DNA of 13,200 nucleotides from a virus (Duplodnaviria > Heunggongvirae > Uroviricota > Caudoviricetes): IMG/VR virus record IMGVR_UViG_2657245439_000001. One strand, 5' to 3'. Both the position numbers and the translations under genes were made by a program. Positions 4,610 to 12,505 of this stretch are shown here, one piece after another (position 1 is the stretch's first letter; each line of letters begins with the position of its first letter). Below the pieces are notes generated by a model that had not been told where the DNA came from, did no database searches, and worked only from the letters and a program-made list of their open reading frames with translations.

Positions 4610-5005
4610 TTATTGCATTCTGGCCAGGCCATGTTCTGTCATTTCGGCTGCCACACTGGCAGAAACACGGAACGCCGTTCCCGGCAGCACAAATGCCACA
4701 GCCTCATCCCGCGTGGCGTGAAGTGCATCAGTATGCAGCGTCACCAGTGCCACAACCGTGACCAGATCAGCCGTATCAGTCACGGTACCCGGCTGCGCTG
4801 ACACCACCTCATTTTCATGCCCGGTCAGCGCATTTTCCGGGCTGACAGACGTGTCCTGACCGGCAGCGTCATCCGTGTCATCAAGCTCCTCTTCCAGCTC
4901 TGCCACACGGAGCGCCAGTTCTTCTTTCGTCCCCGTCAGGCTGACATCACGGTTCAGTTGCTCACCCAGCACCTGAAGACGGGAAATCAGTTCATCTTTC
5001 GTCAT
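4610..5005 (-). CDS. FI: DNA packaging accessory protein FI
   Basis: ATG at 5005 preceded by GGAGGAG. The 131-aa product MTKDELISRLQVLGEQLNRDVSLTGTKEELALRVAELEEEL... matches lambda gpFI. The track ORF is extended to 5044; the internal ATG with an RBS is chosen. Confidence 0.9.
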   Translation of the reverse strand: MTKDELISRLQVLGEQLNRDVSLTGTKEELALRVAELEEELDDTDDAAGQDTSVSPENALTGHENEVVSAQPGTVTDTADLVTVVALVTLHTDALHATRDEAVAFVLPGTAFRVSASVAAEMTEHGLARMQ

Positions 5006-5026
5006 GGACTCCTCCACAGAGAGAAA

Positions 5027-5044
5027 ATGGCCCCGAAGGGCCAT
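5027..5044 (-). other. Stem-loop with UUCG tetraloop directly after the E stop and before the FI RBS
   Basis: Minus-strand RNA AUGGCCC-UUCG-GGGCCAU (7-bp perfect stem, UUCG loop) starts 2 nt after the E TAA and is followed by UUUCUCUCU and the GGAGGAG RBS of FI. Confidence 0.5.
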
Positions 5045-5046
5045 GA

Positions 5047-6072
5047 TTACGCCAGTTGTACGGACACGAACGCATCAGGGTCAGCCAGCAGCATCAGCGG
5101 TGCTGACTGAATCATGGTGAACTCACGCGCCGGATCGCCGGTGGTCACCCAGTTTTTCGGGTAGCGGGCAGAGGCGTTAATACCTTCGCGCTGTGCGTCC
5201 GCATCCTGAATGCAGCCATAGGTGCGCAGACCGCGTGCCTGAGTGTTCCCCAGCACCATCGTGTTGTCCGGAAGGAAGTTCTTTTTGACGTCGTTTTCCA
5301 CGTACTGTCCGGAATACACGACGATCGCCGTATCGCCATACATCCCCTTATAGGACACCGCTTCGCCCAGGTCTTTTACCGCTGTCTCCAGCTCGGAATT
5401 AGAGCCGCGACGGGTATCCAGCTTCTCCTTGACGGCTTTGAAGGAACGGAACAGCGCCCAGCCTTTTGGATCGAACACGATGATATTCACCACACCGCTG
5501 GCGTTCAGCGCGTAGGCTTCGATATCGTCGGTCGGGTCATACGTGGACTTGTCACGCTTGCTCCACTCCGTGCCGCCGGACTGCGTGATGTTATTCGCCG
5601 CACTGCGGCCCATATCCACCTCAACCGGATCGAAGGCTTCACCGGTCATGGTGTATTTGCCCTTGAGCACGGCAGAAACGGCCTGCATCTCTTCGACCTG
5701 GGCAATGGCAAGCTCCTCATCGCGCATGTTCTGCAGGATGATGCGACGGCGGCGGTAAGCAGGGTCTGCCAGATTCTGTGGATCTTCATCCGGCAGGCGA
5801 CGCAGGATCATCTGCGGATTCACCTCATGCTTGGGTTTGACATATCCCGGCGTAAATTCAGAGGTGGAGCCGCCACGGGAGCGGATAACCTCACCGGAAA
5901 CAATCGGCGAAACGTACAGCGCCATGTTTACCAGTCCCGGAATTTGTGAGAGATAGACTTTCTCCGTGGTGAAGAGATAGCTCTCACGGAAAAAAAGACG
6001 CAGAAACAGCGGATCAAACTTAAATTTCTGCTCATTTGCCGCCAGCAGCTGGCCGGTTGTGTACATCGACAT
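5047..6072 (-). CDS. E: Major capsid protein E
   Basis: 341-aa product MSMYTTGQLLAANEQKFKFDPLFLRLFFRESY...FVSVQLA matches lambda gpE at the same length. ATG at 6072; the track extension to 6099 is rejected. Confidence 0.95.
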   Translation of the reverse strand: MSMYTTGQLLAANEQKFKFDPLFLRLFFRESYLFTTEKVYLSQIPGLVNMALYVSPIVSGEVIRSRGGSTSEFTPGYVKPKHEVNPQMILRRLPDEDPQNLADPAYRRRRIILQNMRDEELAIAQVEEMQAVSAVLKGKYTMTGEAFDPVEVDMGRSAANNITQSGGTEWSKRDKSTYDPTDDIEAYALNASGVVNIIVFDPKGWALFRSFKAVKEKLDTRRGSNSELETAVKDLGEAVSYKGMYGDTAIVVYSGQYVENDVKKNFLPDNTMVLGNTQARGLRTYGCIQDADAQREGINASARYPKNWVTTGDPAREFTMIQSAPLMLLADPDAFVSVQLA

Positions 6073-6084
6073 AAAAAAATCCCG

Positions 6085-6112
6085 TAAAAAAAGCCGCACA
6101 GGCGGCCTTTAG
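6085..6112 (-). terminator. Intrinsic-terminator-like hairpin in the D-E intergenic region
   Basis: Minus-strand RNA reads AAAGGCCGC-CUGU-GCGGCUUUUUUU: a GC-rich stem of 5-6 bp with a 4-nt loop, followed by a run of seven U. It lies between the D stop (6128) and the E start (6072). Confidence 0.45.
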
Positions 6113-7075: not shown

Positions 7076-7769
7076 CCGGGACTGCAGTGTTTCCCGGACG
7101 TCATCCGGAAGATGGCTGTAGGGGTTGCCATCCACCTTATGGCTGCCGCTGTAAATCAGCGTGATTTCCACGCCCTGTTTCTCCAGCGCAGCACCGTAAT
7201 TGCTGTGAGCCATCATGACGCCGATGGAGCCTGTCCGGGCGGTCTGCGTGACCAGACGCCGGGAAGCGGCACTGGCAAGCAACTGACCTGCACTGCAGTT
7301 CATGTCGTTGGCAAGCGCCCATACCGGTTTTATGTCACGCACACGGGCGATGATGTCAGCGCAGTCAAATGCCCCCGCCACCATCCCGCCGGGCGTGTCC
7401 ATATCGAGCAGAATGCCGTCCACCATCGGATCGCTGGCAGCCTGTTGCAGACGGGCGATAATGCCGTTGTAACCGGTCATCCCCGAATACGGCTGCAGCG
7501 CCCGCGTCCGGCTGACCAGCGTGCCGGAAACCGGCAGCACGGCGATGCCGTTCATGACCTGATAACTGCGGGCCTGTCGTGGTCCGTCATCATCACCGGA
7601 TAACGCCAGCGTCGCGGGTGCCTCTCCGGCAGTCAGGCTGTCACCGGACACCGCATCTGTCAGGCGGCTGATCCCAAGCTGGCCTGCAAGCGCACAAAAG
7701 AAAACCCGCGCATAGGCGGGTTCAAGCATCAGCGGCTCATTAAAGGCCATGCTGGCAATATGCGGGAGA

Positions 7770-12205: not shown

Positions 12206-12505
12206 CGTAGCCTGCCGGATCGCCGGAAAGGACCCGCAAGCGTTCTGGTTTATTCGCAATGAATTCAATGTCTGACAGACCAGCGTCGTGCGACCACGGT
12301 CGCACGCTCCTGAATACATGCCCTGTTTCTTCCACCCTCGCACAAGACTGGCGAGCATGAGGGACAAACCCGCGAATCATTAGCTCGGTAAAAACCCGGT
12401 GTGCATCGTTTTGATTATTCCCGCACACTCGCGCAGAAGGAATTCCCCGTCGGGCTACGGTCATGGTTAATGCGGGAATACGGCGACGATACAGCGCATA
12501 ATGTG

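Follow-up and report, generated by a model that had tools for sequence, protein, structure and literature searches.

Between the gene for the major capsid protein, E, and the gene for the DNA-packaging chaperone, FI, a lambda-type late operon carries a short hairpin capped by a UUCG loop. The question raised by this locus is what such a hairpin does there: whether it ends transcription, sets translation of FI, marks off the E part of the message, or has no function at all.

The stretch of DNA that was analysed (the window, 13.2 kb at its full length) is the late operon of the left arm, with the head and tail genes, of a lambda-type phage or prophage; its genes lie on the minus strand. Matching of open reading frames gave the gene order Nu1, A, W, B, C/Nu3, D, E, FI, FII, Z, U, V. 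The 1.7 kb around the hairpin was 96–98% identical to many Lambdavirus genomes, whose records name these genes major capsid protein E and DNA-packaging protein FI. The features needed for what follows are these:

6086–6110, minus strand: canonical intrinsic terminator predicted by folding in the D–E gap, AAAGGCCGC-CUGU-GCGGCUUUU then UUU
5047–6072, minus strand: E, major capsid protein gene, 341 aa from the AUG at 6072, about 97% amino acid identity to lambda E
5045–5049, minus strand: E stop codon UAA (5049–5047) and a 2-nt spacer, UC (5046–5045)
5027–5044, minus strand: the E–FI hairpin, with 5′ arm AUGGCCC (5044–5038), loop UUCG (5037–5034) and 3′ arm GGGCCAU (5033–5027)
5016–5026, minus strand: 11-nt pyrimidine/U-rich tract UUUCUCUCUGU, a weak to moderate terminator tail
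5003–5015, minus strand: FI ribosome binding site, with Shine–Dalgarno GGAGGAG (5015–5009), spacer UCC and AUG (5005–5003)
4610–5005, minus strand: FI, DNA-packaging chaperone gene, 131 aa

Structure and setting of the E–FI hairpin

Read on the minus strand, the junction runs CUGGCG UAA UC AUGGCCC UUCG GGGCCAU UUUCUCUCUGU GGAGGAG UCC AUG ACG AAA, and positions 5006–5046 coincide exactly with the 41-nt gap between E and FI. A first-pass annotation had described a perfect 7-bp stem closing a UUCG loop 2 nt past the E stop, followed by a U-rich tract and the FI Shine–Dalgarno sequence; each of these elements was confirmed, on the minus strand. Three points went unmentioned in that annotation: the terminator-like character of the element, whose homologues in phages N15 and HK225 have been annotated as such; its partner, a canonical terminator upstream in the D–E gap; and the minus-strand orientation of the genes. 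The FI AUG used here is the annotated FI start of lambda. Five of the seven perfect pairs are G–C, the 4-nt loop is closed by a C–G pair, and the hairpin taken alone has a ΔG of −12.3 kcal/mol; it was found in the MFE and centroid folds of both the 76-nt and the 41-nt contexts. The loop and its closing pair, C(UUCG)G at 5038–5033, form a UNCG tetraloop closed by C–G. The CUUCGG tetraloop is unusually stable and fast-folding whatever the context (PMC4371310). The hairpin shares with other C(UUCG)G hairpins the exact CUUCGG motif and the C–G closing pair, but these have a structural motif in common and are not a functional family.

Folding stability nevertheless proved a weak argument for function, every measure of it being unremarkable. 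Each strand held 6 perfect hairpins with 7 bp or more and loops of 3–8 nt, where 5.7 ± 3.0 were expected. The 76-nt context folded no better than its shuffles (z = −0.65) and the 41-nt gap modestly better (z = −2.3), while the best 40-nt fold after the capsid gene stood, in close relatives, at about the 10th percentile of tiles across the related loci; the folding strength of the E–FI site is nearly matched by that of GC-rich phage coding DNA. A search with the Rfam families gave no match at gathering thresholds in the window, and none at the hairpin with E values up to 1.

The placement of the hairpin is more telling. Nearly all genes of the head cluster overlap or lie within 15 nt of one another; gaps of more than 20 nt occur only between D and E (55 nt) and between E and FI (41 nt), and both contain a hairpin, one after D and one after E. 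D and E encode the two most abundant proteins of the virion. The E–FI hairpin is a real feature, and the case for it is built on placement and conservation, not on stability.

The hairpin in close and distant relatives

Loci with an E homologue were drawn from genome contigs, viral contigs and phage records. Usable downstream sequence was available for 414 of them, 127 of which were distinct. The close set comprised 84 distinct variants with E at least 75% identical, and the alignment used for covariation held 51 distinct hairpins. Contigs resembling lambda contamination were not counted as independent evidence. Among the genome contigs, loci L003–L018 and L035–L071 included many short, low-coverage contigs with lambda E at about 97% identity, in host assemblies of unrelated bacteria (Chromatium, Paenibacillus, Kitasatospora, Prevotella and others), and bear the hallmarks of contamination by lambda control DNA rather than of real prophages. 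Of 5426 complete Escherichia coli genomes, 3204 (59%) carried the junction itself at an identity of at least 90%.

A GGCCC-loop-GGGCC stem was found in the gap in all 84 close variants, one of them with a U·G wobble. Across these variants the ten core stem positions had an entropy of 0.009 bit per site, as against 0.93 in the loop and about 1.3 in the flanks. In the last ten codons of E, third positions reached 1.19 bit, and first and second positions 0.10–0.18 bit. The FI protein, in turn, was only 43–50% identical where E was 87–90% identical. The divergence of FI, together with E synonymous sites near saturation, rules out hitchhiking of the stem with conserved neighbours, and the conservation of the stem rules out chance occurrence without function.

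The core was invariant in all 51 aligned hairpins, and its five inner pairs never covaried; for these pairs it is conservation only that would argue for a structure. The two outer pairs did covary: one was GC in 14 hairpins, GU in 14, AU in 12 and UA in 1, and the other UA in 34, CG in 6 and UG in 1. The covariation score was 0.143, compared with 0.086 in shuffled alignments; none of 500 shuffles reached it, and all slid controls scored lower. When RNAalifold was applied to the whole gap, only the 5-bp core hairpin was recovered as conserved, and a larger conserved structure that takes in the FI ribosome binding site was accordingly rejected.

Loops among the 84 variants were UUCG (34), UGCG (17), UGUC (12), UCCG (6) and UGUU (5), with eight rarer ones. 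UNCG loops on the sense strand (UUCG, UGCG and UCCG) made up 57 of the 84 (68%), the remaining 27 being of other types. A UNCG loop thus appears to be preferred, not required, and the bias of the sense strand points to an RNA element in the orientation of the mRNA. The surroundings of the stem were looser. The gap measured 38–52 nt in relatives, with 2–13 nt from stop codon to stem. The distance from the end of the stem to the FI AUG was always 17–27 nt, and that to the Shine–Dalgarno sequence mostly 5–14 nt (81 of 83 variants, the other two reflecting a start-codon mis-call). At least five T residues in the 8-nt tail were present in 33 of 83 variants, and four or fewer in 50.

The check for conservation and covariation in related phages that the first-pass annotation had proposed was therefore carried out with a positive result. 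Its suggestion of a structured element, taken as one under selection, was borne out on both counts, while translational coupling between E and FI, which it had also put forward, emerged as the weaker option among the proposed roles. Taken together, these comparisons show that selection acts on a very stable, fast-folding hairpin of the sense-strand RNA, and neither on the U-tract nor on base pairing that involves the FI ribosome binding site.

More distant E homologues (28–68% identity) mostly carried unrelated GC-rich hairpins at the same position. Examples were GGGGC-UACG-GCCCC in L312, GGGGGC-GAAAU-GCCCCC then U6 in loci of the D2 type, GAGYC-GAAA-GGCUC then U6 in those of the 569R10 type, and GGCGGG-UUUAU-CCCGCC in Alteromonas P24. 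A Pseudomonas clade had GGCGCGC-UGCG-GCGCGCC with compensatory variants (e.g. GGCGCAC...GUGCGCC); here the extended stem abuts the Shine–Dalgarno sequence of the next gene, and the U-tract was absent, as it was from several other distant hairpins. A convincing hairpin after E was not seen in a few loci (L061, and the group of about 30% identity). A stable hairpin past the major capsid gene is thus a recurrent positional feature with turnover of its sequence.

In phage D2 (OM475427), FI is annotated to start at 1748, on an AUG that falls within the post-E hairpin, in its loop and 3′ arm (GGGGGCGAAAUGCCCCC). An AUG further on (at about 1785), preceded by GGGGG, looks like the real FI start, and the one at 1748 is probably a mis-annotation.

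Known counterparts and candidate roles

The hairpin is already known, in that it is present in the lambda reference and its homologue in N15 and HK225 has been labelled a putative terminator. Lambda (J02459, 7163–7180) shares with the window an identical 18-nt hairpin, 41-nt gap and FI ribosome binding site; the tail differs at two positions, being UGUUUCUC in lambda and UUUCUCUC in the window, and the lambda record annotates no feature at the site. In N15 (AF064539, 7053–7073) a stem-loop after gene 8 is annotated as a ‘putative rho-indep. transcription terminator’, and in HK225 (JQ086371, 7009–7028) one after gene E as a ‘rho-independent terminator’; both annotations are predictions. These stem-loops occupy the homologous gap, between an E homologue (89% amino acid identity) and an FI homologue, and have the GGCCC...GGGCC core stem with 7 pairs, together with a second annotated terminator in the D–E gap. 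They differ from the window hairpin in their loops (AUUC and UGUC versus UUCG), their spacer (9 nt versus 2 nt) and their tail (CUUUCUGG). The full texts searched contained no experimental study of the E–FI site and no mapped RNA 3′ ends of lambda late mRNA.

Similar arrangements occur elsewhere. The P22-like phage L has terminators within its late operon after the procapsid/coat module, which are not unique and of which it is said that ‘their roles are not known’; partial termination, or the halting of transcription that lacks antitermination, has been proposed for them (PMC8022706). The likeness to the window lies in a terminator-like hairpin directly after the capsid genes of an antiterminated late operon with a single promoter. 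The differences are that phage L belongs to an unrelated phage group with another capsid family, has no sequence similarity here, and that its predicted terminators have U-tracts. Functionally the hairpin also resembles the terminators that follow the coat genes of phiX174, f1 and T7. Stem-loops that confer segmental stability on mRNA are exemplified by the REP sequences of malE-malF, the hairpins of the Rhodobacter puf operon and the terminators of phiX174 and f1 gene VIII. With these the window hairpin has in common a stable hairpin at the 3′ end of the most-needed cistron of a polycistronic message, proposed as a barrier to 3′ exonucleases; in those systems there are direct decay and 3′-end data, whereas the window hairpin is known from its sequence, and REP elements are longer and repeated.

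Could the hairpin be a leaky Rho-independent terminator, one that reduces transcription of FI and the genes beyond it relative to E, or that serves as an insulator or surveillance point against transcripts that are untranslated or not modified by Q? It has the stem of a terminator (GC-rich, within the range of about 5–14 bp, with a short loop) and a T-rich tail, UUUCUCUC, with 5 T in 8 nt; it ranked second among terminator-like sites of the window in a terminator scan. Its homologues in N15 and HK225 are annotated as terminators, some relatives have excellent tails (GGGCCG-UUUUUUCU, GGGCC-UUUUUUAU), and the same kind of terminator with the same roles has been proposed in phage L (PMC8022706). 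The tail, however, is poor in most of the close variants and the U-tract is missing from several distant clades, while the terminator of the D–E gap keeps its T6–9 in nearly every clade. A working terminator is also expected to have its stem far from the upstream stop codon, and here that distance is 2 nt, and 2–13 nt in relatives, which is the range in which a translating ribosome represses termination. Lambda tR2 terminated with about 90% efficiency, but with less than 10% once the stop codon was placed 5 bp from it, and more than 27 nt were needed for full activity (PMC4824070). With an equivocal U-tract and a stem this close to the stop, the hairpin should not be classed as a working terminator on present evidence. 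Antitermination by Q, established for late transcription in lambdoid phages, argues in the same direction, and we consider termination as the main role rather unlikely. A terminator acting on the antisense strand was rejected: the opposite strand has a CGAA loop and no T-run past the stem, and the UNCG bias of the sense strand also opposes it.

Roles in translation meet a different difficulty. The stem might act as an insulator that parts termination on E from initiation on FI and so sets ribosome loading on FI independently of traffic on E, either because ribosomes coming off E would be kept from re-initiating or scanning, or because the FI ribosome binding site would stay in a set local context. 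The spacing of 17–27 nt between stem and FI AUG, at the edge of the 30S footprint, would suit this, as would the Pseudomonas clade, in which the stem reaches the next Shine–Dalgarno sequence. In the window there is also a second small hairpin, in which UUUCUCU pairs with the Shine–Dalgarno GGAGGAG; in the isolated 41-nt gap this pairing (5009–5026) brings the total to −17.4 kcal/mol, and with more context an alternative small hairpin, GUGGA/UCCAU, covers part of the FI AUG. Neither pairing was conserved outside the lambda-type 41-nt gap. RNAalifold gave no conserved pairing of the ribosome binding site, the hairpin that engages the Shine–Dalgarno sequence is confined to gaps of that type, and with a stop-to-stem distance of 2–13 nt the interplay with a terminating ribosome would differ between relatives; an insulator is thus improbable. 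Coupling of the two genes is likewise weaker because of that variable distance, the lack of conserved pairing at the ribosome binding site and the fact that an AUG within the stem is not conserved. This AUG (5044–5042), which lies in the 5′ arm 2 nt past the E stop, could in principle start an FI protein extended by 13 codons, in frame, through termination–reinitiation. The corresponding reading frame (4610–5044) is open, in lambda too, but relatives have GUG in place of the AUG, or else CCG, GCG or CUG, which are not start codons, gaps of 38–52 nt shift the frame (a close relative has a gap of 42 nt), and no Shine–Dalgarno sequence precedes the AUG at 5044. With neither codon nor frame conserved, the arrangement expected of termination–reinitiation was not found; the extended FI is essentially refuted and scarcely credible. 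A role for the sequence as such, as an RNA or DNA site for a specific protein or as a recombination ‘linker’ at the E/FI module boundary rather than a generic stem, would account for a core that never covaries and is more constrained (0.009 bit) than the first and second codon positions of E, and would fit the very different rates at which E and FI evolve on its two sides. Against this, distant clades of the E family have wholly different stems at the same position, the loop varies freely and is yet biased to UNCG on the sense strand, a review reports no proteins that bind the CUUCGG tetraloop (PMC4371310), and short all-GC stems offer no neutral path for compensatory change. We regard such a site as very improbable.

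We tentatively favour the reading of the hairpin as an intercistronic RNA stem-loop that marks off the E cistron at its 3′ end, quite possibly as an exonuclease barrier or a processing boundary and at most as a leaky terminator. In nearly all clades examined a hairpin follows the major capsid gene, as is expected of a stabilising stem-loop, which should be kept as a structure and close off the cistron with the higher expression. Termination at the stem would be suppressed jointly by the Q-modified polymerase and by the ribosome finishing E, 2 nt away; with termination largely suppressed, the hairpin would therefore act mainly after transcription. Once the mRNA had been cleaved beyond the stem, plausibly within the unpaired U-rich stretch directly 3′ of it, 3′-to-5′ exonucleases would stall at the stem, so that the E-containing (D–E) RNA would outlive the part of the message with FI and the tail genes. 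Family members with a good U-tract probably also show, as a side activity, slight true termination, or termination of transcripts that are untranslated or not antiterminated.

The D–E gap and other hairpins in the window

E is bracketed by two hairpins, one in the D–E gap upstream and one in the E–FI gap downstream, and the arrangement recurs in the majority of E-family clades examined. Written with its full run, the upstream terminator is AAAGGCCGC-CUGU-GCGGCUUUUUUU (6110–6086), in which a GCGGC arm is followed by U7; it was missed by a simple scan because its A-tract pairs with the T-run. GCCGC-loop-GCGGC followed by T6–9 was found, with a freely varying loop, nearly throughout the E family, even in clades of about 40% identity; this T6–9 form was absent from the D2 clade and from a few distant loci. 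Conservation of the terminator type is thus stronger in the D–E gap than at the E–FI hairpin. U-rich stretches flank the E ribosome binding site (ACGGGAUUUUUUUAUG).

Hairpins after D and E, the genes of the most abundant virion proteins, are consistent with segmental stability of the message. In its wider form this reading would have the two bracketing hairpins carve a long-lived E or D–E RNA out of the Q-antiterminated transcript, segmental stability thereby making a measurable contribution to capsid protein stoichiometry; we consider this wider form doubtful. Lambda late-protein ratios were reportedly attributed mainly to translation initiation by Sampson et al. in 1988 and in classic lacZ-fusion work, and with control at that level any effect of mRNA stability would be limited in size. 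If true, segmental stability would qualify the view that translation initiation alone sets these ratios. As a finding the hairpin itself matters little: it is in the lambda reference, is shared by the majority of complete E. coli genomes noted above, and has a homologue that is already labelled. What the comparison contributes is a narrowing of the roles open to capsid-flanking hairpins, the stem being very strongly selected and the U-tract not; the modest added value lies in how differently the hairpins on either side of E are conserved.

The top-ranked terminator-like site of the window was neither of these. It is GAACCCGC-CUAUGC-GCGGGUUU then UCUUUUGU, at 7692–7723 on the minus strand, within the 5′ part of the C coding sequence (LEPAYARVFF) and about 47 nt past the B stop. 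Its CCCGC...GCGGG stem and T-run were also present in relatives with 87–97% E identity, and the two clades of L055 and L061, each at about 40% identity, had a similar form. This could be a third hairpin, placed after the portal gene, or could simply reflect coding constraint.

At the far end of the window, a cohesive-end site is expected at about 12206, by offset from Nu1 (start 12016); since it is expected within the window, the window would span the genome ends, as in a prophage or a concatemer. A perfect 8-bp palindrome, CGTGCGAC-CGUG-GUCGCACG, lies at window positions 12287–12306, some 80–100 nt past the expected cohesive-end site.
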